From Robiginitomaculum sp. (GTDB taxonomy: Bacteria; Pseudomonadota; Alphaproteobacteria; Caulobacterales; Maricaulaceae), in NCBI GenBank assembly GCA_002733385.1, contig NVVO01000008.1, forward strand, positions 13,686 to 59,514: a stretch of DNA of 45,829 nt, read 5' to 3'. Below the pieces are notes generated by a model. The model was not told the DNA's origin. It saw only the letters and a list, made by a program, of their open reading frames with translations, and searched no databases. Each line of letters begins with the position of its first letter. Position 1 is the first letter of the stretch. This document shows positions 5,289-34,374 of the stretch, in pieces. Both the position numbers and the translations under genes were made by a program.

Positions 5289-7132
5289 GTGCACAGGACG
5301 ACAACAGCCAGATGATTAACCGGCGTTCGGCCTTGCTGGGGATTGGCGGACTGGGCGCATTTTCGACATTGGCAGGGCGGTTGTATTATCTACAAGTGGT
5401 GCGGGCCGAAGACTATAAGGTGTTGTCTGATAATAACCGGTTTAATTTTAACACTGTAATGCCTGACCGTGGCCAAATTCTGGACAGGAACGGCATAGCT
5501 TTGGCCATGAATAAGCAGGACTTCAGGCTTGTTCTCATCCCTGAACGGGTAAAAGATATTGACGGAACTTTGGCCCGGATAAATGCTATTCTTCCCCTGG
5601 GTCAATCGACACGAAGACGTATCAAGCGCGACATTAACAGCCAAGCCAAATTCATTCCGGTTTTGGTGGATGAACAAATTGACTGGCAAACATTCTCCCG
5701 GTTGAACATTAAAATGCCGGATTTACCAGGCGTCATACCCTTTGAAGGCAAGGCCCGCAATTACCCCCAGCACGGCACATTTGCCCATGTTTTGGGTTAT
5801 GTGGGAAAACCCAGCCCGCAAGCCCTGAAAAATGACAAGGACCCATTAATGCGGCAGCCGACATTTCGTATGGGCAAGACAGGGATTGAGCAATCTTATG
5901 ATCAGCAATTGCGCGGCAAAGCCGGACGTAAAAAAGTTGAAGTTAATGCTGTCGGGCGGATTGTACGCGAATGGGACGACGATAAAATATCTGCCATTGC
6001 AGGGAAAGATGTCTGGTTGACCCTAGATAGCGAATTGCAAAGCTATGGGGCTGAACTGTTCAAAGACGAAAGCGGTGGTGTTGCCGTTATGGATGTGGCG
6101 ACAGGTGAATTGCGTACACTGTTGTCCATGCCAATTTTTGACAATAATCTATTTGTATCTGGTCTGTCGAATGCGCAATTTAAGGCGCTGGATACAGATC
6201 CAAAACGTCCTCAGTTCAACAAGGTGATTGGCGGCGGTTATCCGCCAGCCTCTACTTTCAAAATGGTCGTCATGTTGGCGGCTTTGGCGCACAAGGTTAT
6301 CGACCCCAAAGACAAAATATTCTGCACGGGCAAAACCTTTATTGGCAATCGGGATTTTCATTGCTGGCGGCGAAGAGGCCACGGGCTGGTCAATATGCAC
6401 GAGGCATTGAAACAATCTTGTGATGTTTATTTTTATGAAATAATTCAAAGACTTGGTATGGATAAGGTCAAGCCTTTTGCGGAAAAACTGGGCCTTGGTC
6501 AGGTGTTTAACCTTGGTCTGGGTGGGCAGATACGCGGTATTGTCCCGGATCCGAGCTGGAAGCAAGACAGGCTAGGCACCAAATGGCGCACCGGGGATAG
6601 TTTGAACGCGGCTATCGGGCAAGGGTTTGTTTTAACGACACCTTTGCAGCTTACTGTGATGACGGCCCGGCTTGCCAATGCAAAAATGGCCGTGTCACCA
6701 TTATTAGTGGTCGGTGACAAAATCGAACAGGTGCAAGCATTGGATATAAATCCCGATCATATGGCAATTGTGCAAAAAGCCATGCGGGCCGTATGTGAGG
6801 AACCGGGCGGTACCGCCTATATGCCTAATGGGTTGGGGCTTTTGGGGATTGAACTGGCCGGGAAGACCGGAACGGGGCAGGTCAGGGGCATTTCTACGGC
6901 TGAGCGTCTTTCCGGTGTGCGCAATAATGCGGAACTGCCGTGGAAACTTAGAGACCATTCCATTTTTGTCGGCTATGCGCCATATGAAAACCCTAGATTT
7001 GCGGCTGGGGTTTTGGTAGAACATGGGGGTTCGGGGGCGAGACTGGCCGCCAATATATGCCGAAAAATTCTTGGCAGGGCTCTGGAGCGCGACGGTATTG
7101 GTGCTATAGACAACACAATCGGTGAGAATTAA
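5285..7132 (+). CDS. mrdA: penicillin-binding protein 2 (elongasome transpeptidase)
   Basis: 615 aa. N-terminal TM anchor. Class B PBP motifs STFK (PPASTFKMV), SxD (SCDVYF) and KTGT (LAGKTGTGQV). Lies directly upstream of rodA. Confidence 0.9.
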   Translation: MSAQDDNSQMINRRSALLGIGGLGAFSTLAGRLYYLQVVRAEDYKVLSDNNRFNFNTVMPDRGQILDRNGIALAMNKQDFRLVLIPERVKDIDGTLARINAILPLGQSTRRRIKRDINSQAKFIPVLVDEQIDWQTFSRLNIKMPDLPGVIPFEGKARNYPQHGTFAHVLGYVGKPSPQALKNDKDPLMRQPTFRMGKTGIEQSYDQQLRGKAGRKKVEVNAVGRIVREWDDDKISAIAGKDVWLTLDSELQSYGAELFKDESGGVAVMDVATGELRTLLSMPIFDNNLFVSGLSNAQFKALDTDPKRPQFNKVIGGGYPPASTFKMVVMLAALAHKVIDPKDKIFCTGKTFIGNRDFHCWRRRGHGLVNMHEALKQSCDVYFYEIIQRLGMDKVKPFAEKLGLGQVFNLGLGGQIRGIVPDPSWKQDRLGTKWRTGDSLNAAIGQGFVLTTPLQLTVMTARLANAKMAVSPLLVVGDKIEQVQALDINPDHMAIVQKAMRAVCEEPGGTAYMPNGLGLLGIELAGKTGTGQVRGISTAERLSGVRNNAELPWKLRDHSIFVGYAPYENPRFAAGVLVEHGGSGARLAANICRKILGRALERDGIGAIDNTIGEN

Positions 7133-8271
7133 TGGCCCGCTCTGCCGCATCTGGAACGCTATTTGCGAAACTCATGCAGCTTAACTGGTTGTTACCGGTC
7201 TTGATTATTTTGGTTGGCGCAATAGGCGTACTTGCCATTTATTCGGCCACGGATGGCCAGTGGAACAGTGGGGCGAGCCAGCACCTCACACGTTTGCTAA
7301 TTGGACTAGTTTTCATGGTGGTTATTGCTCTGACAGACATCAGGGTTTGGTTCACCCTTGCATATCCTGGATTTATTTTCGCGCTTATTTTGCTGCTCGG
7401 CGTTGAATTTTTCGGGGTTACGGTGAACGGCGCCCAACGTTGGCTGGATTTGGGGGTTATGCGTATCCAGCCATCGGAATTGATGAAGCTTGCGGCGGTG
7501 ATGGCGTTGGCACGGTTTTATCATGATCTGCCGGCATGGCGCGTATCCAAACCCGTAGGTGTTTTTGGGGCATTGTTGATCGTCTTTGTCCCAGTGATTT
7601 TGATTTTACGCCAACCTGATTTGGGGACGGGCATTATGTTGGCCGTGACAGGTGTGACTTTGATTTTTCTGGCTGGTATAAATTGGCGGGTGATTATCAG
7701 CTCGGCAACACTGGCCGTGATAACCATTCCCTTATTCTTTATTTTCGGGCTTAAAGACTATCAAAGAACACGCATTTTGACATTCCTAAACCCAGAGCAT
7801 GATCCGACCGGTGCCAGCTATCATATTATCCAATCAAAGATTGCCCTGGGAAGCGGCGGTGTCAGCGGCAAGGGTTTTATGGAGGGCAGTCAGGCTTCCT
7901 TGAATTATGTACCGGAAAACCGGACGGATTTTATTTTTACGGTTATCGGTGAAGAATTTGGCCTGATCGGTGGGCTTGGCACCATGGCTTTGTATATTCT
8001 GATCATCTTTGTTTGTTTCTGGCTGGCCAGTCAAATCAAGCAGGCTTTTTCTCAGTTGTTGATCATGGGTTTGACCATGACTTTTAGCCTTTATGTGCTG
8101 ATCAATCTAGCCATGATTATGGGCATGGTGCCTGTGGTTGGTGTGCCATTGCCCTTGATATCCTACGGCGGTACGGTCATGATGACGGTGTTGGCAGGCT
8201 TTGGCATGGTGCTTTCTGCCCATGTGCACCGGGATACGGAATTACCGCGAGGATCCGGTTTGTTGTTATAG
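7132..8271 (+). CDS. rodA: peptidoglycan glycosyltransferase RodA (SEDS family)
   Basis: 379-aa polytopic protein with the FtsW/RodA/SpoVE signature GSQASLNYVPENRTDFIFTVIGEEFGLIGG and C-terminal PLPLISYGGT. Its start overlaps the mrdA stop. Confidence 0.9.
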   Translation: MARSAASGTLFAKLMQLNWLLPVLIILVGAIGVLAIYSATDGQWNSGASQHLTRLLIGLVFMVVIALTDIRVWFTLAYPGFIFALILLLGVEFFGVTVNGAQRWLDLGVMRIQPSELMKLAAVMALARFYHDLPAWRVSKPVGVFGALLIVFVPVILILRQPDLGTGIMLAVTGVTLIFLAGINWRVIISSATLAVITIPLFFIFGLKDYQRTRILTFLNPEHDPTGASYHIIQSKIALGSGGVSGKGFMEGSQASLNYVPENRTDFIFTVIGEEFGLIGGLGTMALYILIIFVCFWLASQIKQAFSQLLIMGLTMTFSLYVLINLAMIMGMVPVVGVPLPLISYGGTVMMTVLAGFGMVLSAHVHRDTELPRGSGLLL

Positions 8272-8280
8272 AGGAAGAAG

Positions 8281-9552
8281 ATGAGACAGTTTTTACGCGT
8301 GTTATTATTGGTACTATTTTTGGTGTTCGCCTTAAGTAGTTGTAAGCTTGTTGACATCGATAAACCTAATAATTCACCCGCAAGCAAAGAGCCAATTGTG
8401 ATAATGATTGGTATTGACGGCTTGGCTTGGGACGCCATAGATCGACACCCCGCCCCGACTTTACAAGCTATGGCACGTGACGGTGTACGGGCTAAATCCC
8501 TGATCCCGACCATGCCGACCAAAACCTTTGTCAATTTTTATTCCTTGGCGACCGGGCTTTATGCGGACGGCACAGGTATCACAGACAATACGCCCTATTC
8601 AAAAAAATATGAGGAGATCATGGCCCGAGACATGCACGGGCAAACCCGGTGGTGGGGCGGAGAGCCGATCTGGGTAACGGCGGAAAAGCAAGGTGTTCGA
8701 ACCGCAGCCATGTTCTGGCTTGGCTCCGAGGCTAAAATCAAAGGCAAACGTCCGACCCATTGGACGGCCTATGACCATTACAAGCCCCACAAAGAACGGG
8801 TGGATCAAGTGCTGGACTGGTTGGCTATGCCTACCCAAGACCAGCCGCGATTTCTGACATTGTATTATTCTGATGTGGACTCGGCCTCTCATAGATATGG
8901 CCCCAAGACACCCGAGGAAGGCAATGCGATTTTGAAAATTGATAAAAGTATCGCCGAGCTTCGCATCGGTATTGAAGATTTGGGTTTAACAGACCGGGTC
9001 AATCTCATAGTCGTTTCAGATCACGGCATGATAAAAATTGACCCTGAATTCATGATATATCTTGATGACTATATTGATCTGGAGGAGGTGTTTATTCCGG
9101 CATTTCACTCAAGCGCAGGGCCGCATAGCGATCCATTTGTCCATATTTATGTGAAAGATGCGGGAAATATCGACCAAGTTTACAATAATCTCAAAAATGC
9201 ACACAAGGGCTTACAAGTTTATAAGCGGGCAGAAATTCCTGCCAATTGGCATTTAAACCATCCCGATAGAACCGGCGATATTTTTGTGGTTGCGGATGGG
9301 GGCGGTATGATTTTTGCGCGCAAGCTAAAGTCCAAATACAAATATGCCGCCAAAGGCATGCATGGTTATGACCGCTTCCACAAGGATATGGGGGCCAGTT
9401 TTATTGCCACTGGCCCGAATTTTAAAAAAGGGGTGAGCGCCGCGCCGTTTGATAATGTCGAAGTTTACGGCATCATTGCAAAAATCCTAAAGCTGGATCC
9501 GGCTCAAACGGACGGGGATATAAAGAACGTAGAATATTTTCTAAACCCGTAA
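8281..9552 (+). CDS. ectonucleotide pyrophosphatase/phosphodiesterase (NPP, alkaline-phosphatase superfamily) lipoprotein
   Basis: 423 aa. Lipobox FALSSC. NPP-type motifs IGIDGLAWD, PTMPTKTFVNFYSLATGLY (nucleophile Thr), YYSDVDSASHRYGP, VSDHGM and GMHGYD. Confidence 0.8.
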   Translation: MRQFLRVLLLVLFLVFALSSCKLVDIDKPNNSPASKEPIVIMIGIDGLAWDAIDRHPAPTLQAMARDGVRAKSLIPTMPTKTFVNFYSLATGLYADGTGITDNTPYSKKYEEIMARDMHGQTRWWGGEPIWVTAEKQGVRTAAMFWLGSEAKIKGKRPTHWTAYDHYKPHKERVDQVLDWLAMPTQDQPRFLTLYYSDVDSASHRYGPKTPEEGNAILKIDKSIAELRIGIEDLGLTDRVNLIVVSDHGMIKIDPEFMIYLDDYIDLEEVFIPAFHSSAGPHSDPFVHIYVKDAGNIDQVYNNLKNAHKGLQVYKRAEIPANWHLNHPDRTGDIFVVADGGGMIFARKLKSKYKYAAKGMHGYDRFHKDMGASFIATGPNFKKGVSAAPFDNVEVYGIIAKILKLDPAQTDGDIKNVEYFLNP

Positions 9553-9564
9553 AACGCCTGCTGA

Positions 9565-10524
9565 TCAGGCTCGCGGGTGTGCGCTTGCATGCACTCTCAT
9601 CAAACCGCTGATATCTACATCCGTATAAATTTGGGTGGATTTTAAACTGGCATGGCCGAGCAATTCCTGGATCGTGCGTAAATCCCCGCCCCCGGCCAGT
9701 AAATGTGTGGCGAAGGAATGGCGCAGGGCATGGGGCGTTGTGGATTGGGGAAGCCCAAGCGCGGCCCTTAGGTTTTGCATGGTTTTTTGTAAACTGCGCG
9801 GGCCGAGCTTGCCACCGCGCACGCCGCGAAACAGCGGCGCCCCGGCTTGCAATATATGGGGGCATAATTGAACATAAGCGGCTACGGCTTTGCCTATGAC
9901 TGGCAAAATCGGCACCAAGCGAGTTTTTTTGCCCTTACCTGTAATGAAAATACTGTCACCAAGCGGGTGGTCTCCGCCTTGCAGGGACAGGGCTTCAGAA
10001 ATACGCAAGCCGGCTCCGTACATGAGCAATAAAACGGCTCGGTCGCGGGCCGCAATCCAGGGGTGGTTTAGATTTGTGATGGTGTTGATCAGGTTCTGGC
10101 TGGCCTTTGGGCTTATGGGCTTGGGCAGAGATTTTTTCGGCTTCGGCCCCTGAATTAAGGTTATGGCGTCATTTTTGACATCCCAATTACGCTCAATATA
10201 ACGAAAAAAAGTGCGCAAAGCTGACAAATTGCGCGCCAAGGATCTAGAGGAGAGGGAACTGCCTGAAACCGCCTGTTGGCCGCGCCGTCTAAAGGCGAGA
10301 TAACTGCGAAAATTTCGAATGTTCAGGGCCGCTAGTTCCGTCAGTCCGACGGGCTTTCCGAGATGCTCAGAAACAAATTGCAAAAATGTAGAAACATCCC
10401 GCTGATAGGCCTGAAGCGTGTGTTCGGACAATCGGCGTTCTGCCCGCAAATGCTGGATGAATTTGCCAAAGATAGCTTCTGTAGTAATTTGACTTGTATG
10501 TGTACTCGGTTTGCGCATATTCAT
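9565..10524 (-). CDS. xerC: tyrosine site-specific recombinase XerC
   Basis: 319 aa. C-terminus HALRHSFATHLLAGGGDLRTIQELLGHASLKSTQIYTDV...HPRA carries the R-H-R-Y catalytic set. The GDLRxIQELLGHAxL stretch resembles XerC more than XerD. Confidence 0.75.
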   Translation of the reverse strand: MNMRKPSTHTSQITTEAIFGKFIQHLRAERRLSEHTLQAYQRDVSTFLQFVSEHLGKPVGLTELAALNIRNFRSYLAFRRRGQQAVSGSSLSSRSLARNLSALRTFFRYIERNWDVKNDAITLIQGPKPKKSLPKPISPKASQNLINTITNLNHPWIAARDRAVLLLMYGAGLRISEALSLQGGDHPLGDSIFITGKGKKTRLVPILPVIGKAVAAYVQLCPHILQAGAPLFRGVRGGKLGPRSLQKTMQNLRAALGLPQSTTPHALRHSFATHLLAGGGDLRTIQELLGHASLKSTQIYTDVDISGLMRVHASAHPRA

Positions 10525-10625
10525 AGAGTGCTGGTCGAATGTTAAGGAAGAATTAGGGGTTCCAATTTTTGTGAAATCAGATGGGTTGCCCCTACAGGGT
10601 TATATTGTTTAATGGTGTGATTTAT

Positions 10626-14883: not shown

Positions 14884-14979
14884 AATAATCTTTTGTGAAT
14901 GGAGGTTTGTATATCCGTTACTCTGTTACCCGTAAACCTGAAATTAAGACTAATACTGTACCCATGTGAGAATGTAACT

Positions 14980-16137
14980 ATGGCGAAATGGGGTCTTATG
15001 TCAAATACACAGCTTGGCAGCTTGTCCGAAAATATAGGCGGCGGTGTGCGCAAATATATTTCCAGTGTATTTGGCCCTGATTGGCCCTATTTGAAACTGT
15101 TGTTTTTAGGTGTTCTCGTGTGGTTTTTACTGGCCCAATTTAGCATGTATCTTGTACCGGACACTTCGAGTACTGGCGGGCAAAATTCCAAACAATATCT
15201 AGAATATGTGGTGCGCAACGGCAAAATTTATTTGGTTTTTGTCATGGCTATCCTGTCGTTCAGGGTCATGGTTGAGGCGAAGAAAACCGATACGGGTCAA
15301 TCCGTACTGGTCTTGATCTTTGGATATTTACGCAGTGTTTGGCAAAAATGGTGGGCTGGGCCAAAAAAAGAGGCCTTGGGCATTCCGGCGTTTCTGTTAC
15401 TGGCTATCATCACATTCGCCCTGTTTTTGTTGTCCTATTCAACCATAAAAACCCGGGTGCCGGATTTTATGCCGTTTAGCTGGGACGTTACATTCATGAA
15501 AATGGACCAAGCCTTGTTTTTTGGTAAAGACGCCTGGCAGCATTTTGCGTTTCTTTATGATTATCCCAAAATTATCCTGTTTATGGATTTTGTCTATGAT
15601 TTATGGGCTGGCATTCTGGTCACGGCCTGGTTTTTCACCTTACGTTACGGCGGCAAGGACAAGCTACGGCGGTATCAATTTATTTTGGCGCTTATGTTGA
15701 TTTGGTTTATCGGCGGCAATATTCTGGCTATCTTATTCTCCACGGCTGGCCCGGTGTATTTTGAAGCTGTAACCGGACTCCCGAGCAGTTTTGATGAACA
15801 AATGGCGGCCCTGTCGGTTATCAATGCCCAAACCCCACTACGGGCATTGGAATATCAGGCATTTTTATGGGATGTGTATGAAAGTCCCGGTGTCGGGCTA
15901 GGCGGCATTGCCGCAATGCCGAGCATGCACAACGCCTCGGCCTTGTTGCTCTATATGATGTTTGCGCGCGGCGTGGTCACACGGATATTGTTTGGCGGGT
16001 TTGTTTTGATCATATTTATCGGTTCATTCATGCTGGCCTGGCATTATGTGGTCGATGCTCTGCTGGTCGTGCCCGTGGTGATTGTCTGCTGGAAACTTGC
16101 GGGTTGGATTGTAAATAAAGTTGCTGTTACGGATTAA
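14980..16137 (+). CDS. PAP2-superfamily (phosphatidic acid phosphatase / sphingolipid-synthase-like) integral membrane protein
   Basis: Polytopic ORF with the C-terminal PAP2 motifs PSMHNASA and AWHYVVDAL (SxH ... HxxxD). The track ORF begins at 14899. The ATG at 14980 (MAKWGLM) leaves a 96-bp divergent promoter region. An ATG at 14998 is also possible. Confidence 0.6.
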   Translation: MAKWGLMSNTQLGSLSENIGGGVRKYISSVFGPDWPYLKLLFLGVLVWFLLAQFSMYLVPDTSSTGGQNSKQYLEYVVRNGKIYLVFVMAILSFRVMVEAKKTDTGQSVLVLIFGYLRSVWQKWWAGPKKEALGIPAFLLLAIITFALFLLSYSTIKTRVPDFMPFSWDVTFMKMDQALFFGKDAWQHFAFLYDYPKIILFMDFVYDLWAGILVTAWFFTLRYGGKDKLRRYQFILALMLIWFIGGNILAILFSTAGPVYFEAVTGLPSSFDEQMAALSVINAQTPLRALEYQAFLWDVYESPGVGLGGIAAMPSMHNASALLLYMMFARGVVTRILFGGFVLIIFIGSFMLAWHYVVDALLVVPVVIVCWKLAGWIVNKVAVTD

Positions 16138-23937: not shown

Positions 23938-26178
23938 CTAGTTTTCAGTTGCGCAAGCTGCGCGCGTACATACCGGTACGATTAGCCGAGCGTCGATAAT
24001 GTTGATCACACCATCACCATTCAAATCACATACGTCACCGCACCGACTATCGGCAGTACTCAGGTTTTTGTCCGTGAGGAGTAAATTAATATCATTGCTA
24101 TCAACATCACCATCGCCGTCAATATCACCGCGAACAATATCTGGAACATTATTTACAATGACCGACGTTGTCGCTACGCGGACGAACTTTTCAACGACTT
24201 TTACGTTCGCGGGATCAATACCAGCAAACAAAGATTCCCCCTCATTAATTTGACTGCTCGGAGTTGTATTGACCGTGACGTCGAAGGTATAAGTTCCACT
24301 GCCGTCATAATTGCGAAATTCTGCTGTATAGATACCGTCACCAGCTATAAAATCCCCATTGGTTCCGTCATCAAACAGCGGAATATTTACGGGCCCGCCG
24401 TCAGGACGAATAACCGTTGCCGCAACTGCGCCGTTCGTGACCGCGATACCCTCAAATTGTGGGGTCGCTTCTATGATTATCGGGGCGGGAAAGACAATAT
24501 TTTCATCCCGGACACTCGCAAACAGAGCCCCCTTGCCACCGTCCGCAAACGATAAAAATTCCGCTCTGCCATCCGACACGGCATTCGCGGTAAATTCGGC
24601 CATCCATTCACCTGCTGCCGGGCTGGAAATCGTGAACTCAACGGCATTCCCCACATCATTCCGAACAACACCGCCGGAAGCCGTTACATCTGTACCCGCC
24701 GGGTCTAACAGTTTAATTGAGAAGTCATCTGAAGTTTGGGCGCGTGTAAAAATTACCGTAATCGTACTCACGTTATTTTCCACGAAAAGCGGAAAAGATT
24801 GAACTTCCGTATTTTGAAACTGAAGCGTGGGTTGTTGGGCCAATATTCCCTGGTTTGAGGCTTCGGCTGCCAGGCGAGCAAATTGCACTAGCAATTGAAA
24901 ACCATTCTGAACCTGAAAAAATTCTCCTCCGGTTTGTGTTCCGATTGTTTGTAAAGTCGACAATCCAGAACTCGATAGCCCACTGCCGATAGCAACCGAA
25001 ATAACGGCAACCCCTTCATTTTTTATCGACGGGATCACGCTTATGGGATTGGTTCCAGTGTTATGGTCTCCGTCACTGAACAGGATAATTAACTCGTTGC
25101 ACGATCTGGATGTTTGAGAAGTGAGTTGAGTTAAACCTGCCTGCAAACCACCTCCTATATTCGTCAACCCACTAGCGACTAGACTATTTGCGGCAGCATT
25201 CACGCTAGCAACATGTGCAGGTGTCGCCAAAGCAAGGTTAGTGTTAACACCCGCTGAAGAGGAGAATGAAGCCAAGCCTACCGAGTCTTGCGCTTTCAAT
25301 ATATTGGTAAATAGGGTTACACCCTGCTTGGCAAAACCAATACGATTGTCGGTCTGCATACTCCCGGATCGGTCGACAACCAGCATCGTTTTCAAGTTGC
25401 CTGATGCATCCTCGAAAGTGACTGTGTGTGCCGCGGGAGCTGCAGACACAGGTAATGCTTTCGGGGCTATAGCCGGGTATTTTGATTTTGCGATGGTTTC
25501 CCAATCTGACTCATTATTATTAATTGAACTTTGAAATGTATCCCGGTCTGGGTCGTGGTTTGATTTGACGCTCAATTCATTGAGCGTGTACGTTGTACCG
25601 TTCCCATTTGGGCCGCGACCACCTCGCGTAAAATAATTATCCATCAGCGAGTAATTCAATGTCGCTGTCTCAGCGCTGGCAGGCGCATTCTCGGCGTTCC
25701 CCATCGGACCTGAGTATTCGTCAGCGATACTATAGGCATGGTGAACATGTTCATGAGCAATTGTGTAGGAGTCGCCATCTACGCCACTTTTAGCGTTGAA
25801 ATTAGAGTCATAATACAAATTAACATGCTCGCCGCGTGTGCCGTATTTACCGAGTGTTGCGAAAGCTCTGCCGGAACCCGAATTTATCCAGTACTCTGCC
25901 GCTTTTGAAGCGCCGCTATCGTTGATGACACGAATGTTTCCAAATCTGTGCTGATTATCCGTAGCGTCAGCTAAAATTTGACTTCCAGAATTAAAACGTT
26001 CTTTTATGCGTTTAATTTGCGCATCAGAGGCTTTGAATCTTACAGATACGCAAAAATTGAAATGTCCATTACTGGCATCAAATTCACCGGTTCCGGCATT
26101 CGCATGGCCTGTGCCAAGCGGTGATATAATTGCCAGAACGGCAATCGCCGACACGAATGTGAAAAACTTGGACATCAT
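23938..26178 (-). CDS. secreted CLCA-like zinc metalloprotease / von Willebrand A protein with C-terminal dockerin
   Basis: Start at the ATG at 26178 (MMSKFFTFVSAIAVLAIISPLGTGHANA signal peptide) with AGGAG 7 nt upstream. HEHVHHAYSIADEY has the same spacing as the CLCA N-terminal protease motif HEWAHLRWGVFDEY. VWA MIDAS residues are VVDRSGSM ... GLTNIG ... FSDGD. Beta-rich domains follow, including a DDGTNGDFIAGDGIY motif. The last 65 aa are two dockerin repeats (GDIDGDGDVDSNDINLL and CDLNGDGVINIIDARLI). Confidence 0.75.
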   Translation of the reverse strand: MMSKFFTFVSAIAVLAIISPLGTGHANAGTGEFDASNGHFNFCVSVRFKASDAQIKRIKERFNSGSQILADATDNQHRFGNIRVINDSGASKAAEYWINSGSGRAFATLGKYGTRGEHVNLYYDSNFNAKSGVDGDSYTIAHEHVHHAYSIADEYSGPMGNAENAPASAETATLNYSLMDNYFTRGGRGPNGNGTTYTLNELSVKSNHDPDRDTFQSSINNNESDWETIAKSKYPAIAPKALPVSAAPAAHTVTFEDASGNLKTMLVVDRSGSMQTDNRIGFAKQGVTLFTNILKAQDSVGLASFSSSAGVNTNLALATPAHVASVNAAANSLVASGLTNIGGGLQAGLTQLTSQTSRSCNELIILFSDGDHNTGTNPISVIPSIKNEGVAVISVAIGSGLSSSGLSTLQTIGTQTGGEFFQVQNGFQLLVQFARLAAEASNQGILAQQPTLQFQNTEVQSFPLFVENNVSTITVIFTRAQTSDDFSIKLLDPAGTDVTASGGVVRNDVGNAVEFTISSPAAGEWMAEFTANAVSDGRAEFLSFADGGKGALFASVRDENIVFPAPIIIEATPQFEGIAVTNGAVAATVIRPDGGPVNIPLFDDGTNGDFIAGDGIYTAEFRNYDGSGTYTFDVTVNTTPSSQINEGESLFAGIDPANVKVVEKFVRVATTSVIVNNVPDIVRGDIDGDGDVDSNDINLLLTDKNLSTADSRCGDVCDLNGDGVINIIDARLIVPVCTRAACATEN

Positions 26179-26203: not shown

Positions 26204-27055
26204 CTATGGTTGTCGGACTTTAGCATATTCAAAAATACTGAATTGCACTAAACCCGTATCAAATCTAAACATCCCTTCTTTAATTTTTATTCGGTTTATT
26301 GCCCGACCGGAATGTTCGAAAGGAATAAAAATACGAGGCTTATGCAAGCAGGCCTCTAGTGCCGTATTTCCGACAATAGTTTCCAAAGTTCGTTGTTTGA
26401 TGAGACTGTCGGAATTAATCCCTTTGGCACGTCGCGAGCTAACGGTTTCGCACCGCAGTGCGGCATTGACGACGGAAGAGGAGGCGGTGTTTGGCAATTC
26501 TTGCATGTCCCTAAATACGTCTAAAAAATCGTGGATTTGCTTGGATTTAGCGAGGTTCAAACTGCGCATGGAAGCCAAAGCATTGGAAGCGAAATGTGCA
26601 AAATGCACAGTATGAATATCTCCTTCAACCACTCCTGTCGGACGCTTGGCGACCACCATCTCCTTGTTCGTCGCATCGGTCCAGGTGGATAGATAAATCT
26701 GTGCAAGTTCAGGAGTAATCATTTTGTACCGAATGTCTGAAATTGTCAGGCCATTTGGTTGATAGGCGACGATCTGAACACAACCCGTATCTGCAATACT
26801 TATCTGGCGAGCGGTAAAGTCAAGAAGAGGTTTATGATTGAGAATTAGGGTTTTCTTCGGTGCAGGTGAACGCAAGCAATCGGATACTATCCCCTGCAAA
26901 GCCGGTTCGGTTCTCTGGGCGCTAGTAATGGAACTGGCCATGCTGGGTCGACAAGAAACAAGAAACAAGCCAACAAATATAGTTTTCACTATGCTTGGCG
27001 TGCCCAATTTAATTCTGCAGATGAGACCCCGCGCAATATGAGAAAACAATTTCAT
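26204..27055 (-). CDS. hypothetical lipoprotein/secreted protein (operon member)
   Basis: Start at the ATG at 27055 (MKLFSHIARG...), 4 nt after the upstream stop. Hydrophobic segment IFVGLFLVSC (possible lipobox). About 250 aa with no motif I recognise. Its stop lies 25 nt upstream of the dockerin-protein start. Confidence 0.5.
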   Translation of the reverse strand: MKLFSHIARGLICRIKLGTPSIVKTIFVGLFLVSCRPSMASSITSAQRTEPALQGIVSDCLRSPAPKKTLILNHKPLLDFTARQISIADTGCVQIVAYQPNGLTISDIRYKMITPELAQIYLSTWTDATNKEMVVAKRPTGVVEGDIHTVHFAHFASNALASMRSLNLAKSKQIHDFLDVFRDMQELPNTASSSVVNAALRCETVSSRRAKGINSDSLIKQRTLETIVGNTALEACLHKPRIFIPFEHSGRAINRIKIKEGMFRFDTGLVQFSIFEYAKVRQP

Positions 27056-27059
27056 TGTA

Positions 27060-27557
27060 TTACTCAAACTGAACATCGGTGGAGACCGTCAAATAGGATT
27101 CCTTATCGGAGCTAGACTCTATATCGCGGTAGGTCATTTCCCATTTTAGCGGCATCGTTTCGCTCGATTCGATTAAACCGTCGACGATAGAATTTAAGAT
27201 GATGGCTCCTGGTGCCGTTTTCACCACATTTTCAGGCAGGTTCGAAAAAGTAATATCGCTTGATGTAAATTGCATGAATTCTGGAATCTCACGGAGAAAC
27301 AATTTGAAGTCTTTAATGTTTGTATTCGACGTTTTTTCTACAAGGACATCGTAAGTGTATTGTTCTGGTTTGGTTCCGACGCCACCTATGAATTTCAAAG
27401 ATATCTTCAGAGAGAGTGGCTGCAATACGACTGGCGGCGGAGCTTGAATAACAGGTGCAATGGGTGTTTCAGCCCCACCACCACCGCAGGCGGAAGTCAA
27501 ACCTCCAACTACAATCAAAATCCCCATCTTTAATAAATCAAAGTTTTTCACAATCAT
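27060..27557 (-). CDS. small lipoprotein (operon member)
   Basis: 165 aa. Lipobox GGLTSAC followed by a GGGG/Pro-rich linker (APVIQAPPPVV) and a beta-rich domain of about 110 aa. No recognisable family. Confidence 0.55.
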   Translation of the reverse strand: MIVKNFDLLKMGILIVVGGLTSACGGGGAETPIAPVIQAPPPVVLQPLSLKISLKFIGGVGTKPEQYTYDVLVEKTSNTNIKDFKLFLREIPEFMQFTSSDITFSNLPENVVKTAPGAIILNSIVDGLIESSETMPLKWEMTYRDIESSSDKESYLTVSTDVQFE

Positions 27558-27608: not shown

Positions 27609-29075
27609 TTAGAACACGATACGTAGCGTCGCTGAACCAATGTGTTGTGTTGTGTTGGAGCCAAACAGCCCTTTATATCCAAAATTTATGCTGGTATCTT
27701 GGCGTATGCCTATACTAATCCCCGGTTCTATCGTGAACATATCACTGTCTATCAAATCGAACTGGGCTCTTATGTCCGGCACCGTCGCCGCCAAATTATC
27801 TGCGAATAAAGCGTTTATTTGAAATTCATCACTAGATGTACTTTGCCAACCCAACCCGAGATGAGGGCGAACTTTAGCACTACCTGACCCGCTGTGCGTT
27901 TTACTGAAATCTACTTTAATATATACTACCGTGCTATTATCAGATGATTGTTGAGCGAAAACCGTCAATACATCTGCACCGGTTTCTTTAAGATCATCGA
28001 TTTCGGTTTTGACCGCGGCTACTGAGGCGGATGGTATAACTGTAATTCCGTTCATTTGCGTTTCATAACTTGCGCGCAACATTACGCTGGTGCTGGTGAC
28101 ATTAAATGGAGTTCTCGAGACCATTCCTCCCAGATTTGCATGTGTAATCCATAGCGCTCCGTCACTATTTGTGCGCGTATAACTTCCGGTCACTACGAAG
28201 GGGTCAAAGTTCCACCCCACAACACCGTTAAACGAAAATCTATCTCCGTCATCAATGGAACTGGTATTCATATAGTTTGTATTAAAACTGCCGGCTGAGA
28301 TACCACCTCCGAGCATCAATCCGCCTTTTAATTGAACCAATCCGCCGCCGAAATAACTTGTAGAATTTTCGTTTACGGCAATTGTGTTGAATTTGGAATC
28401 CGCATAACTACCGCCTACGAACAAACAGGCCTTGTTCCCCGAATTACCGCTGAGTTTTTTTATGAATCTATGATCGCATGACTGGGTAAGATCGGCAAAA
28501 GCAATATTTGCCATCAGGGTTCCGCTGAGGGGTTGAGCAAATTCATCAACTGAAGTGCGGTCAACCAGCATGACCGTCACCCCGTTCAAGATCGGGCTAA
28601 GAGCATTCCCGTCCGCATCAGCAAAGGCGAGGCCCGATAGTGAAAAATTTGCCGCTCCCACATTTTGCGCCAGAAACGTCAGTGACCCCAATGGGAGGGT
28701 ATTGCTTTGCGCGGAATTTAAGTTGGCGGCGCTCTCAAGAGAAACCTCAAAAATTCCCAATTGACCTAGCATCGTTGCATCGGTTCCAAATAGAGAATTT
28801 GCCGGATTTGCACTTAATGCAGGACCGAGACTGTTTCCGAGCAACGACACCAAATTGCTGTCAAACAAAAGTAAAAAGTCATAAGCCCCCAAAGACGGCA
28901 CCCCTGACGCTGTCAAATTCGAAATCAGTAGGGATAAGTCGAAAGTTGTTCCAACTCTGACATATTGTACCTGGGAGTCTAACGATATGGTTTGAGCATT
29001 TGCAGGTAAATATCCTATACAAGTCGAAATCGCCGTCGCAATTACAGCCTTTTTTATGAAATCCGGTTTTTTCAC
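27609..29075 (-). CDS. autotransporter outer-membrane protein with a cohesin-like passenger domain
   Basis: Signal peptide ...STCIGYLPANA/QT. Residues 31-174 or so fit the cohesin pattern (VRVGTTFDLSLLISNL..SLGAYDFLLLFDSNLVSLL ... LGSLTFLAQNVGAANFSLSGLAFADADGNAL). The C-terminal 300 aa or so have alternating beta-strand character and end GSATLRIVF (terminal aromatic), as in autotransporter beta-domains. The GTG at 29075 lies 6 nt from GGAGG. The track start is the GTG at 29081. Confidence 0.65.
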   Translation of the reverse strand: MKKPDFIKKAVIATAISTCIGYLPANAQTISLDSQVQYVRVGTTFDLSLLISNLTASGVPSLGAYDFLLLFDSNLVSLLGNSLGPALSANPANSLFGTDATMLGQLGIFEVSLESAANLNSAQSNTLPLGSLTFLAQNVGAANFSLSGLAFADADGNALSPILNGVTVMLVDRTSVDEFAQPLSGTLMANIAFADLTQSCDHRFIKKLSGNSGNKACLFVGGSYADSKFNTIAVNENSTSYFGGGLVQLKGGLMLGGGISAGSFNTNYMNTSSIDDGDRFSFNGVVGWNFDPFVVTGSYTRTNSDGALWITHANLGGMVSRTPFNVTSTSVMLRASYETQMNGITVIPSASVAAVKTEIDDLKETGADVLTVFAQQSSDNSTVVYIKVDFSKTHSGSGSAKVRPHLGLGWQSTSSDEFQINALFADNLAATVPDIRAQFDLIDSDMFTIEPGISIGIRQDTSINFGYKGLFGSNTTQHIGSATLRIVF

Positions 29076-29214
29076 AAACACCCTCCACCCATGGACGCAT
29101 TGTATTTACCGACGGGGTCAAAGTGAAGCGCCCTTCCAATTTGACATTTCTTCTCTTAACATAAACTCCATAAATTGCAAGCGGATTTACAAATTCTGTC
29201 ACCGAGAACTAGGC

Positions 29215-29650
29215 GGGAACGTGCCGGACGCAACCAAAAGAGGCGGCTTTCGCCAAAAGCTGGTTGCACATGATCTTTTGGAAATTTTACTGGGCGAGGT
29301 CAATCGCCAACTTGAACAAATGCACATCATCATGACTGAGGGGCGGGCAATATCATCGACGCCACATCAATTGAGGCGTCCTGGTCTGGCTCCGGCAAAG
29401 GCGCAGATGGCGGGCCCAGCCTTGATCCTGATGCAGGCTGGCACGTCAAGTCTACAGCAAAGGCAAGCGCAAACCCACCTATGGTTACTCTGTTCATACC
29501 GGGGCCAACGAAGATGGTTTCATCCATCGCCAGACCGTACTACAGGAAATGCCATGATAACAGCAAGCGCCATACGCTATTGCTGGGCGGCGAGGCCGGC
29601 CTATTACCCGATAAAACTGCTATACGGCGCTTAAAAAGGTCTTTTCTGAT
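29215..29650 (+). pseudogene. IS5-family DDE transposase fragment (truncated at both ends, at least 3 frameshifts)
   Basis: Three frames together give GNVPDATKRGGFRQKL..LLEILLGEVNRQLEQ.....EGRAI / IDATSIEASWSGSGKGADGGPSLDPDAGWHVK / GKRKPTYGYSVHTGANEDGFIHRQTV / HDNSKRHTLLLGGEAGLLPDKTA. This matches the IS5-type core (VPD.T..FR, G.I.DAT.I.A, DPDA.W..K, YGY..H, TTGNAHD, ADK.Y). There are no inverted repeats and no N- or C-terminal regions. Confidence 0.7.
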
Positions 29651-29655
29651 ACGAA

Positions 29656-29786
29656 AGTTTGACACATCTTGAACCACACTCTGTAAAAATAGCTAATAAA
29701 CATGAATAAATACAACAACTTAGAATATGGTCAATCTGCCTTCTAAGCAGGGGGTTGTAGGTTCGAGTCCTACCTAAATCGCCATT
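29656..29786 (+). repeat. att-like repeat copy 3: arm plus degenerate tRNA-Arg 3' half
   Basis: 29736-29786 reads ctgccttctaagcagggggttgtaggttcGagtcctaccTAaatcgccatt, with three mismatches to the tRNA. The arm 29656-29735 is homologous to 23686-23767. It abuts the metC stop codon. Confidence 0.75.
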
Positions 29787-30949
29787 TATTTTGAGACCTC
29801 AAGCAGTTCAAGGGCTTTGGCCCAATCGTTTTTCATATCTTCAATATCTTCCAAACCACAAGCGATGCGCACCAATGGACCGCCGAAACCGGGATCAAAA
29901 CTGCGGGTTAATTGCGGGTCACAATGTATGACCAGGCTCTCGAAACCGCCAAAGGAAAAACCTTTGGCAAAAAGTTTCAAACTGTCGAGCAAGCGCAATA
30001 CGTCTTTTTCGCTGCAAGGCTCAAACACAATGCTGAACAAACAGGCCGAGCCGGTAAAATCCCGCTTCCATAAGTCGTGATTGGGGTGGGAGCTTAGGGC
30101 AGGGTGGATCACCCGTTTTATCTTGTCGTGTTTTGCAAACCATTTGGCCAGTGCCAGCGCGGTTTGTTCTTGTTGGTTACAGCGCGTCACTAAAGTACGA
30201 AACCCGCGCAAGACCTGATAGGCATCATCTGGAGAGGTGGAATTACCCAAAGCTATGGCCGCTTTTTCCACTATCCGTGCCAATTTTTTTGTCCGCGATA
30301 TGACCGCGCCAAACAGGACATCACTGTGGCCGCCAAAATATTTGGTGGCGGCGTGAACGGAGATATCCGCACCCAGATCCAGCGGCGCATAGACCAATCC
30401 GGCTGACCATGTGTTGTCGACAATGGTGATGATATCACGGTCTTTCGCCGCTTTGACAATGGCTGGCAAATCCTGAATTTCCAAACTCAAAGAGCCAGGG
30501 CTTTCCAGCAATATGCAAGTCGTATTTTTGCGAAACAGGCTGGAAATATCTCCGCCAATATCCGGAGGGTAATATTGGGTTTCCACACCGAATTTCACCA
30601 GTAATGTATTGCAAAAATGGCGTACCGGGCCGTAGCTGCTGTCGGACACCAATATATGGTCGCCCGCTTTGACATTGGCCAAAATCGACAATGTGTTGGC
30701 GGACAGCCCGCTGGGGGTCAGTGTGCAGCCCGCACCATTTTCCAAAGCGCAAAACGCAACACTTAATGCATCATGTACGGGGGAGCCGTGACGACCATAA
30801 ATCCGGTGTTTGCCGTTATACAGATCGTCTGCTTTGTCAAATAGCAATGTCGAGGCCCGCATAATAGACGGGTTTACACTGGCGCCAGCCTTGATGTCTG
30901 GTCGTCCCACATGGGCAAATTGGGTGGATTTTTTCATAATGTCATCCAA
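29786..30949 (-). CDS. metC: cystathionine beta-lyase
   Basis: 387 aa. Cys/Met-metabolism PLP family with PLP-lysine motif HAATKYFGGHSDV, DNTWSAG and RIACGLEDIEDM. The length and termini look like MetC. Confidence 0.8.
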   Translation of the reverse strand: MDDIMKKSTQFAHVGRPDIKAGASVNPSIMRASTLLFDKADDLYNGKHRIYGRHGSPVHDALSVAFCALENGAGCTLTPSGLSANTLSILANVKAGDHILVSDSSYGPVRHFCNTLLVKFGVETQYYPPDIGGDISSLFRKNTTCILLESPGSLSLEIQDLPAIVKAAKDRDIITIVDNTWSAGLVYAPLDLGADISVHAATKYFGGHSDVLFGAVISRTKKLARIVEKAAIALGNSTSPDDAYQVLRGFRTLVTRCNQQEQTALALAKWFAKHDKIKRVIHPALSSHPNHDLWKRDFTGSACLFSIVFEPCSEKDVLRLLDSLKLFAKGFSFGGFESLVIHCDPQLTRSFDPGFGGPLVRIACGLEDIEDMKNDWAKALELLEVSK

Positions 30950-32061: not shown

Positions 32062-34374
32062 TCACACCCGGCCATAGTTCAAGGCCGCGTCGCACAGGAG
32101 ATAGGCCCGGCCAGTTTCACTTTCGAGTTTTGTGCGGATAGCTTCGCGGCTGACACCCAATTGTTCAAGTGAGCGGTCAAAACGGGTCGCGAATTTGATG
32201 GTTTTCTCACTTAGATCATCATTAACCGCCAAAGATTTTACTAAATGTTCCACCGGATTTTTTAGTCGTGCCTTGACGCATTTACTCATGGCCTCATGAC
32301 CGCTTACGGCCCGGGCATTGCTGGCTTCGATGATGCAACCGTCGTCGACAACCGCATTTACCGATAATCCCAATTGGGCCAAATCAGCCAACAAAACATC
32401 ATCATCGCTTTTGCTTTGTGTTTCGGATACGGCTTTGGGTTTTGACGGGGCGACAATATCAAGACTGGAAGGGGTGTTAGCTTTCGCCTTTGATTTGAAA
32501 ATATTGCGAAACAATCCGCCTGATTTAGATTTGGTATTGCGCTCATTGTCAATTGGGACAGACCTTCGGATGGTTACATCAGCTATATCTGGCAAGTTTG
32601 ATGCTTGCGGCGAGTTTTGCGCGGGTGTTGGTACGTTTGCATCTAAGGCAGGCTCTTCATTTTCTCTCAAAGATGGTTCATTTTTTCTCAAAGAAGGCTC
32701 AGGCGGAATTCTTTCGACATTTTGCCGCAATATATCAGGATCAATCTGGCCATCCACGAGTTCAAGCGGTGCTTGCTCATCAGGCTTTGGAACAGTGGTG
32801 TCCTCGATCATGACATCAAGTTTCTCGGAAGCTGTCTTGGGGGTAGGGGAGAGTTTTCTGTCTTTATCTTCCTGAGTAATTTCAATGAGAGGCTTGAGCC
32901 TGAGCCTGGTGCGCCTCCCAGATTTAGGCCGCTTCTTTTTTCCGACATGACCGGGCGGGCTATTATCCGTATCCGTATCCGTATCCTTATCTTTCTCGCT
33001 TTCATCCGGAACAAGCTCTAAGGACCTAGGTTGTTTATTACCAATTCGGCTTTGCAGTCCGGCCATTTCTTGCTCAATACGGGCGATTTCCTTACGGGTT
33101 AACTCAAGACTGTCTTGCACACGTTGGGCCGCCATATCGCTGATGCTTTGGGCATGTTCCGTGGAATATTGCACCATATCGCGCATTTCTGCGAACCGGG
33201 CCTTGACGGCATTGTCCGCCAAAGATGCAGCCTCGGCCAAAGCTTCAATGGTTTGCTTGCCCGTGCGCGAGGCTTCCGTAAGGCTTTCTGCGCTGGCTTG
33301 GGCAGACAGGGACAAGTCGCGCATTTTGCTCAAACGCTCTTGCATGCTGGCCCCCAAGGATGTTTGCTCATCGCGCAAATGCTCTATCATGGCCGTCAGC
33401 TCACCGGCATGTTTTTTGTAAACAGTATCCAATTCCTCGGAGCGTTGGCGAATAATGTCCCCCAGGCTCTTGATATCTTCGTGGCTGGCACTGAGTGTCG
33501 AGGCGGCTTGAACCGTGTTGGAACGGACAATATCGGACGCTGAATTGATCTTGGCAGTGGCACCTTCGACGCTGATCCGGGCTTCCTTGATTTTTTGCTC
33601 GGCAATCTGCACGGCTTTGGCCAGATTGTCCGTGTGCATGGTCAAGGTGTTGGACAGGCTTTCCATGCTCAAGTCCAGGGTTTGTGTCATATCGATCAGG
33701 GTTTGTTTCTGGACATTGACGCTCTGATTAATGGTGGCAACGGTTTCGCGCACATCACTGTTTGCGGTTTGCATGGTTTCGGCCTGAATTTGCACAGCGT
33801 CGTCCATTGCACCGAGGCGCATAAGGGCGGTTTCAAGCCTGTTGTCCACATGGTCAATTTGCGCCGCAATGGTTTCCGCCATGATTTTACTCTTTCCAAT
33901 GACGGTTTTATCCGGCGTGGTCAGGGCGCTGGCCGCCAGATTAAGGGCATGTGCCTGGCTAGACAGTTTCGCCAATTGTTTGAGACAATATGCCGTCACA
34001 ATAATCAGCAAGATCGGGCCAAGCACCAACACTGCAATGGAGGCCCACTGTAAAGGTGTATTGGTTTGCCAACTATTGGCGACATCCAGAACAATAAACA
34101 ATAATGCACCAACAATGATCAACCACAACAAACTTGCACCAAGCACTGCCCGTTTAATCCAGCCAAAATCAGGGCCGTCGGGCATGGTGGCTTGCATAGG
34201 TTCTCTTTGTTGTGTTGGTATGGGTTTTAAAATATCTACCAGATCTAGGCTATCAATTTCTTTGTCAGGTGTTTTCGCTACATGTGCCCTGCTTATACTG
34301 CCTCTATCTTCAATGCTCCGGGCTTCAATGCCCCCGGCTTCAATACTGGTTATTTTGATTTTTCTATCGACCAC
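32062..34374 (-). CDS. membrane-anchored long coiled-coil protein
   Basis: 770-aa ORF with a GTG start that is uncertain. Two TM helices (LGASLLWLIIVGALLFIVL; IAVLVLGPILLIIVTAYCL) are followed by about 300 aa of heptad-like Ala/Gln/Glu-rich sequence, a charged disordered linker with DTDTDTD, and a compact C-terminal domain of about 110 aa. Confidence 0.6.
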   Translation of the reverse strand: MVDRKIKITSIEAGGIEARSIEDRGSISRAHVAKTPDKEIDSLDLVDILKPIPTQQREPMQATMPDGPDFGWIKRAVLGASLLWLIIVGALLFIVLDVANSWQTNTPLQWASIAVLVLGPILLIIVTAYCLKQLAKLSSQAHALNLAASALTTPDKTVIGKSKIMAETIAAQIDHVDNRLETALMRLGAMDDAVQIQAETMQTANSDVRETVATINQSVNVQKQTLIDMTQTLDLSMESLSNTLTMHTDNLAKAVQIAEQKIKEARISVEGATAKINSASDIVRSNTVQAASTLSASHEDIKSLGDIIRQRSEELDTVYKKHAGELTAMIEHLRDEQTSLGASMQERLSKMRDLSLSAQASAESLTEASRTGKQTIEALAEAASLADNAVKARFAEMRDMVQYSTEHAQSISDMAAQRVQDSLELTRKEIARIEQEMAGLQSRIGNKQPRSLELVPDESEKDKDTDTDTDNSPPGHVGKKKRPKSGRRTRLRLKPLIEITQEDKDRKLSPTPKTASEKLDVMIEDTTVPKPDEQAPLELVDGQIDPDILRQNVERIPPEPSLRKNEPSLRENEEPALDANVPTPAQNSPQASNLPDIADVTIRRSVPIDNERNTKSKSGGLFRNIFKSKAKANTPSSLDIVAPSKPKAVSETQSKSDDDVLLADLAQLGLSVNAVVDDGCIIEASNARAVSGHEAMSKCVKARLKNPVEHLVKSLAVNDDLSEKTIKFATRFDRSLEQLGVSREAIRTKLESETGRAYLLCDAALNYGRV

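Follow-up and report, generated by a model that had tools for sequence, protein, structure and literature searches.

What could a single cohesin be doing as the passenger of an autotransporter in a marine alphaproteobacterium? The question is raised by one gene in a 45,829-nucleotide stretch of a Robiginitomaculum sp. metagenome-assembled genome (MAG; contig NVVO01000008.1), the whole of which we refer to as the window. The gene occupies positions 27609-29075 of the minus strand, on which all window features described below lie unless noted otherwise, and encodes a 488-residue protein (PHS39971.1, COA91_04895; annotated as 'hypothetical protein') whose parts follow one another in the order signal peptide, cohesin, linker and barrel. 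A first-pass annotation of the window had recognized a cohesin-like module on an autotransporter barrel and had overlooked a neighboring gene of its cluster, encoding a dockerin protein, that would give this fusion a function: judged by its sequence, that protein, PHS39968.1, is the probable partner of the passenger. The best explanation of the gene is that it encodes a minimal outer-membrane 'anchoring scaffoldin'. On balance, we consider it likely that the barrel anchors the cohesin on the outer membrane and that the cohesin captures dockerin-tagged cargo there.

The pairing of cohesins with dockerins is among the strongest protein-protein interactions, and nearly all work on it concerns the cellulosomes of Gram-positive bacteria. 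To our knowledge, the many occurrences of these modules outside cellulosomes are mostly without an assigned function. In the window, the anchor, the receptor and a candidate ligand are all encoded within 5 kb, which makes the locus a testable Gram-negative case.

Architecture of the cohesin-autotransporter

The sole folded domain of the passenger comprises residues 28-173 (28557-28994). Its identification as a cohesin is transitive, by way of homologues, and structural, and both routes support it. Direct searches with the passenger returned no match in Pfam, NCBIfam or PDB sequences; a phmmer search of PDB sequences with the whole protein returned nothing above noise (hits to a tail protein and to antibody fragments, E>0.08), and a first pass by word-indexed homology search matched nothing beyond the protein's own sequence. 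An exhaustive HMMER search (query residues 31-220, in the numbering of a 490-residue product) recovered 567 passenger homologues at E<=1e-3, a relationship far above chance. Among the 42 closest, 21 match the Pfam Cohesin family PF00963 (best E=4.3e-8), 14 have PEP-CTERM tails and 2 have autotransporter barrels. The great majority of the homologues are proteins of ~200 residues, each composed of a signal peptide, a related cohesin and a PEP-CTERM-like tail. Searched against the PDB, a 24-sequence profile of the passenger family matched cohesins exclusively (E=6e-4 to 9e-3), including ScaC of Ruminococcus flavefaciens (5lxv_A, E=6e-4) and the cohesin of Clostridium perfringens NagJ.

The structural evidence agrees. 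An AlphaFold2 model of the 488-residue protein, built with a 124-row alignment, predicts residues 29-172 to be all-beta, with a predicted local distance difference test score (pLDDT) of 90-98; a single-sequence prediction of the whole protein had a mean pLDDT of 31. When the modelled passenger was compared with the PDB by Foldseek, cohesins accounted for all 50 of the top 50 matches. Template modelling (TM) scores ranged from 0.61 to 0.84 for single-module cohesin chains, with lower values for multi-module entries, and included 0.84 for 2vo8, 0.82 for 6kgd_A, 0.80 for 1aoh_A (CipA) and 0.80 for 2xdh (Archaeoglobus fulgidus); the best matches superimposed with a root-mean-square deviation of 2.5-3.3 A over ~150 columns. 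The top match by E-value was the type I cohesin of OlpA (3ul4, TM 0.79). Identity to solved cohesins in these alignments is 10-18%. The modelled passenger would adopt the nine-stranded jelly-roll beta-sandwich that characterizes cohesins, so that the first-pass reading of residues ~31-174 as a cohesin-type fold holds in the AlphaFold2 and Foldseek results as well as in the PF00963 matches of half of the closest homologues.

The C-terminal part, residues 222-488 (27612-28412), is a type Va autotransporter beta-barrel. Its match to Pfam PF03797 scores 53.7 bits (cut-off 26 bits; E=3.3e-14, residues 224-469) and spans profile positions 8-254 of 255, or 247 of the 255 positions. No other outer-membrane family, porins included, matched the C-terminal half in Pfam even at E<=1. 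The closest homologue (P0002) also passes the NCBIfam model TIGR01414, autotrans_barl (28.1 bits, cut-off 16). The barrel ends in ATLRIVF, an aromatic-ended beta-signal, and two related fusions end comparably (GIHF in P0002, VRVPF in P0074). The autotransporter-like features noted at first pass, the terminal LRIVF among them, are thus borne out by family matching: the domain belongs to type V autotransporters and neither to porins nor to another outer-membrane protein family. With a Sec signal and a passenger N-terminal to the barrel in a single polypeptide, the protein is, by sequence criteria, a type Va autotransporter with an unusually short, non-beta-helical passenger.

The passenger had been put at about 150 residues; we find a folded domain of ~145 residues and a linker of ~50. 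The linker, residues 174-221 (28413-28556), was delimited from the alignment and the model. It contains a conserved AQPL-G motif, a predicted helix at residues 189-200 that presumably spans the barrel pore, and two cysteines, Cys200 and Cys217, which lie 17 residues apart and are conserved in P0002. Autotransporter passengers seldom contain cysteine.

The gene itself appears sound. Its open reading frame (ORF) lies uninterrupted at 27609-29081, exactly where the first-pass annotation had placed it, and encodes 490 residues counted from the first GTG. The GTG at 29075 is the more likely start codon than the alternative GTG at 29081, because GGAGG lies 6 nucleotides upstream and PHS39971.1 is identical to the 488-residue product; the stop codon is at 27609-27611. 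All peptides quoted at first pass occur in the translation (VGTTFDLSLLISNL, LGAYDFLLLFDSNLVSLL, GIFEVSLES, SCDHRF...NKAC, ETGADVLTV and the terminal LRIVF). So does the proposed cleavage site: the hydrophobic N-terminus, a predicted Sec signal peptide (residues 1-27, 28995-29075) that forms an N-terminal helix in the AlphaFold2 model, ends in the motif ANA/QT. Two Joint Genome Institute (JGI) metagenome contigs each encode a version with a single residue changed. The intact ORF, the 99.8% identity across three assemblies and a 47%-identical homologue that shares the same architecture together argue for purifying selection.

A dockerin in the same cluster and the recurrence of the gene pair

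The cohesin-autotransporter gene opens a run of four same-strand genes with gaps of 51, 4 and 25 nucleotides between them, and two other metagenome contigs show the same arrangement. The fourth gene (23938-26178) encodes PHS39968.1, a 746-residue 'hypothetical protein' with a signal peptide, an HExxH motif, a VWA domain, an Ig-like region and a C-terminal dockerin. The dockerin module (23941-24147) consists of two calcium-binding loop-helix segments and a Cys-rich tail. Its first loop, DIDGDGDVDSND (24091-24126), is followed by INLLL; the second, DLNGDGVINIID (23992-24027), begins 33 residues after the first and is followed by ARLIV. Read from the sequence, these are the two 12-residue, EF-hand-like calcium loops of a dockerin, with Asp or Asn at positions 1, 3, 5 and 12 and a predicted helix after each. 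The C-terminus of PHS39968.1 is the only place in the 46-kb window with such a loop pair.

Comparison with solved structures and with other loci points in the same direction. The best PDB matches of the C-terminal 83 residues are the dockerins 5lxv_B (E=8.2e-5) and 2y3n_B (E=8.5e-5), which rank ahead of calmodulins. In a single solved cohesin-dockerin complex, 5lxv, chain A is matched by the profile of the passenger family and chain B by the dockerin of PHS39968.1. The module also aligns with dockerins from other loci, and all calcium-ligand Asp residues are conserved across five loci. Most dockerins in this alignment have flanking Cys pairs, as expected of proteins that are oxidized outside the cytoplasm.

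Elsewhere, PHS39968.1 carries a zinc-protease-like motif, HEHVHH (25738-25755), and a VWA domain (24895-25383; Pfam VWA, 61.5 bits) with the intact DxSxS metal-ion-dependent adhesion site (MIDAS) motif DRSGS (25360-25374). The closest solved relative of the VWA domain is human CLCA1 (6pyo, E=5.8e-9). A HEHVHHAYSIADEY motif precedes the domain, resembling eukaryotic CLCA proteins, and in Pfam the N-terminal region touches CLCA_N (PF08434) alone, at a sub-threshold E=0.11. As a faint lead only, we suggest that PHS39968.1 could be a self-processing, CLCA-like metalloprotease-VWA protein of bacteria.

How often do such fusions, and such pairs, occur? In a collection of 5.8 billion sequences, the cohesin-autotransporter fusion is represented by four clusters at 90% identity (P0001, P0002, P0074 and P0263), and a further copy is present in a gammaproteobacterial MAG (L003). 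The fusion, called unusual at first pass, is indeed rare; it is not unique, given three more fusion clusters. Two of these, P0074 and P0263, carry a precomputed PF00963 match, so that the domain combination was already visible in precomputed Pfam annotations: it is the reading that is new, not the sequences.

The cohesin family is paired with a dockerin gene in five of five independent loci that have enough flanking sequence, namely the window, L003/L005, L006/L007, L009 and L011. Two of these pairs resemble the window in having an autotransporter anchor. In L005, which encodes P0263, the gene directly upstream specifies a 637-residue PKD-repeat protein with two tandem N-terminal dockerins (Dockerin_1, 34.5 bits), and in L003 an equivalent PKD protein is likewise directly upstream (24.1 bits). 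In the remaining loci the anchor is a PEP-CTERM or PEP-CTERM-like tail, again with its dockerin gene directly upstream: a purple-acid-phosphatase-like enzyme with a C-terminal dockerin in L006/L007 (Dockerin_1, 27.9 bits; pair at 7391-8436 in L006 and 5253-7927 in L007), an Ig-domain protein with a C-terminal dockerin in L009 (29.5 bits; 7978-10618), and in L011 (655-1457) a protein that ends in a dockerin loop pair, recognized by that pair only. Domain identities, fold, gene layout and this recurrent pairing are direct results of the tools used. To judge from these sequences, a dockerin cargo followed by a cohesin anchor looks like a general gene pair in Gram-negative metagenomes.

One more locus, L004, encodes the autotransporter P0002 and, downstream, a VWA lipoprotein cut by the contig end. 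We considered the latter as an orthologue of PHS39968.1 and rejected it: the two have no significant BLASTP similarity, and the contig ends before the C-terminus of the lipoprotein. L004 is uninformative, neither supporting nor contradicting the pairing.

Several other members of the family deserve mention in their own right. P0010, P0123 and P0150 are scaffoldin-like proteins of 800-1140 residues with 4-5 tandem related cohesins, Pro/Thr-rich linkers and a C-terminal membrane segment, and P0123 also has a dockerin-like segment. Near P0263, positions 5476-5973 of L005 (minus strand) encode a 165-residue fragment that matches only the C-terminal part of an autotransporter barrel; a reverse-transcriptase gene (RVT_1; 6287-7630, plus strand) adjoins it, and this barrel gene may have been disrupted by a group II intron or retroelement.

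Two genes lie between the cohesin and dockerin genes of the window. The first (27060-27557), 51 nucleotides after the autotransporter gene, encodes the 165-residue PHS39970.1, with a lipoprotein-type signal (LTSAC). The second (26204-27055) starts 4 nucleotides further on and encodes the 283-residue PHS39969.1, with a possible lipobox (LVSC). Neither protein matched a family, and neither has a counterpart in L004; they possibly act in export or assembly of the cargo. On the other side of the autotransporter gene, ~700 bp (29100-29790) separate it from a Cys/Met-metabolism gene and contain only short overlapping ORFs. One ORF there (29056-29634, plus strand) is presumably a frameshifted remnant of an IS5-type transposase, and on the JGI contigs an opposite-strand gene of 137 residues is called in the same region. 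This interval could be the edge of an inserted cluster. ARAGORN did not bear out a suspected tRNA-like end near 29750-29800.

Elsewhere in the window, a CckA-type kinase gene and MreB/PBP2/RodA genes fit a marine alphaproteobacterium of the order Maricaulales, and two long ORFs (32062-34374, minus strand, 770 residues; 14899-16137, plus strand, 412 residues) matched neither Pfam nor NCBIfam at the thresholds applied.

Proposed mechanism and competing explanations

We propose that the protein is exported by Sec and that its barrel, of the 12-strand type, would insert in the outer membrane and thread the short passenger outward, as in other type Va autotransporters. One cohesin would fold outside, near the cell surface, on a linker of ~50 residues, and would capture a secreted dockerin protein by calcium-dependent cohesin-dockerin binding. 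The prime candidate for this cargo is PHS39968.1, with its HExxH motif and VWA domain; once captured, it would equip the cell surface with a metal-dependent adhesin or protease. To get there, the cargo would cross the outer membrane by a route encoded outside the window, for example type II secretion. We infer the binding, the retention and surface exposure of the passenger, and this crossing from sequence features. Evidence that the cohesin would bind the dockerin is genomic, consisting of the dockerin gene in the same cluster and the pairing in five loci. That the design is feasible follows from engineered fusions of cohesins to YfaL and Ag43, which are exported and bind dockerin proteins.

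Several observations weigh against this proposal. The passenger does not match Pfam Cohesin PF00963 even at E<=1, and Dockerin_1 (PF00404) scores PHS39968.1 at 22.4 bits, 0.5 below the 22.9 cut-off (E=1.5e-4). Judged by its sequence the barrel is divergent: a two-sequence profile of linker and barrel found no match in the PDB at E<=1, and with it no solved autotransporter relative. The AlphaFold2 model is consistent with 12 strands and a pore helix; it contains 11 long strands (pLDDT ~50-89), with low confidence for residues 180-246, where a first strand would lie, and pLDDT <50 for the linker, including the predicted helix. The dockerin gene is three genes away from the cohesin gene in the window, with two uncharacterized genes between, whereas in the other loci the two genes are adjacent. 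The only export signal of PHS39968.1 is a Sec signal, and we saw no outer-membrane export system for it in the window. Finally, scans for promoters and terminators gave results no better than shuffled controls.

The distance between the two genes also bears on the strongest competing explanation, in which the surface cohesin does bind dockerins and the VWA neighbor is not its partner, or not its sole one; the true ligands would be other dockerins of the genome or those of neighboring cells, in aggregation or biofilm cohesion. The cargo classes vary between loci (PKD, phosphatase, Ig and VWA proteins), and cellulosome cohesins often accept many dockerins. Only one dockerin was found in the window, yet the window is only 46 kb of the genome. 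However, the dockerin gene belongs to the same tight, same-strand cluster as the cohesin gene, and cohesin/dockerin adjacency in five independent loci is what would be expected of cognate pairs. We regard a different or additional partner as unlikely.

Somewhat further down the scale of plausibility is the idea that the cohesin-fold passenger is a dockerin-independent adhesin or glycan-binding module, and that the nearby dockerin is coincidental or otherwise used. Beta-sandwich folds are versatile, the passenger falls below threshold on Pfam Cohesin and has low identity to solved cohesins, and most of its relatives are small PEP-CTERM surface proteins without an assigned function. Against this, the structural matches, cohesins in every case, include no carbohydrate-binding module or other sandwich, and the repeated adjacency of dockerin genes is hard to explain otherwise. 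We also considered placing the PEP-CTERM relatives in the PepA family of flocculation proteins and rejected this, as their NCBIfam matches fall below threshold and do not extend from the sorting tail into the cohesin domain. This reading, too, seems improbable.

Many autotransporters release their passengers, and a degenerate insertion sequence (IS)-like stretch lies just upstream of the gene, but cleavage to a soluble cohesin, or decay of the gene to a remnant, is very improbable in view of the intact ORF, its near-identity in three assemblies, the 47%-identical homologue of the same architecture and the lack of an obvious use for a free monovalent cohesin.

If the cohesin-autotransporter is the anchoring scaffoldin that we propose, it may be one instance of something broader. 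We suggest, tentatively and as slightly less than an even bet, that Gram-negative bacteria have a widespread, hitherto undescribed cohesin-dockerin surface display, in which small cohesins of one family sit on interchangeable anchors (mostly a PEP-CTERM/exosortase tail, rarely a type Va barrel), each with a gene for dockerin-bearing cargo, be it an adhesin, a phosphatase, a protease or a PKD protein. On this view the window encodes the first scaffoldin found in nature to be anchored by an autotransporter, and its cargo would be a metalloprotease-VWA protein of the CLCA-like kind. More than 500 related small cohesins, mostly with PEP-CTERM tails, are often encoded directly downstream of a dockerin gene, and this pattern may outweigh the single gene. 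It points to a general, modular decoration of Gram-negative surfaces and, if true, would give a function to many PEP-CTERM 'hypothetical proteins'. With the candidate dockerin partner and the pairing seen across the family, what looked like a curiosity of domain architecture becomes a surface-display system open to testing.

Comparison with known systems

The closest functional parallels among natural proteins are the Gram-positive anchoring scaffoldins OlpA, OlpB and SdbA of Clostridium thermocellum, in which one or a few surface-fixed cohesins capture dockerin proteins. The differences lie in anchor and cargo. Clostridial scaffoldins are held by S-layer homology (SLH) domains or a sortase wall anchor and carry carbohydrate-active cargo, whereas the window protein belongs to an alphaproteobacterium, is predicted to be held by an outer-membrane type Va barrel and has a candidate cargo of the VWA/HExxH kind. 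The window does not encode a cellulosome: its cluster contains no glycoside hydrolase or carbohydrate-binding module (CBM), the candidate cargo having HExxH and VWA instead. The organism belongs to an aerobic-type marine alphaproteobacterial lineage.

Among autotransporters, EstA of Pseudomonas aeruginosa offers a type Va comparison: its passenger, globular and not beta-helical, is a GDSL esterase about 300 residues long. Both proteins have a monomeric PF03797 barrel and a compact passenger that stays, or in our case would stay, on the cell. The window passenger differs in being a ~145-residue protein-binding module without enzyme activity, which places it among the shortest passengers.

Outside cellulosomes, cohesins and dockerins are reportedly widespread, according to the survey of Peer et al. 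2009. Across the literature that could be searched, papers that mention both cohesin and autotransporter are essentially all engineering studies, and the Peer et al. survey may list the fusion; no paper that we found combines cohesin, dockerin and PEP-CTERM. The toxin complexes of C. perfringens NagJ/NagH (2ozn) and the A. fulgidus cohesin (2xdh) are cases that, like the window, put cohesins and dockerins to use outside cellulose degradation, and a hypothetical 'planctosome' of Planctomycetes has been described in which peptidases would be tethered at the outer membrane, with a lamin-tail domain proposed as the anchor (PMC6461901). Unlike the window family, none of these is anchored through a PEP-CTERM tail or an autotransporter barrel. 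The PEP-CTERM/exosortase relatives come nearest within that family: they share the same cohesin, and the window protein has an autotransporter barrel in place of their tail.

The most exact counterpart is man-made. A YfaL-AfuCoh76 fusion in Escherichia coli is exported and binds a dockerin-tagged protein on the cell surface (PMC9705933), and Ag43-CtCoh/AcCoh fusions in Pseudomonas putida are exported and bind dockerin-tagged proteins (bioRxiv 10.1101/2020.05.13.093500); a 2025 review of cellulosomes names Gram-negative display as an engineered case only. The design of these displays is identical to that predicted for the window protein: signal peptide, cohesin passenger and type Va translocator. 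The engineered displays are chimeras, in which clostridial or archaeal cohesins sit on enterobacterial barrels, with the dockerin protein supplied externally. The window protein, by comparison, is the product of a natural gene, has its own barrel and has a candidate partner encoded in the same cluster. Its compact 488-residue anchor might serve as an efficient display scaffold, and the locus suggests that the cohesin on an autotransporter, which synthetic biologists had designed, already exists in nature.

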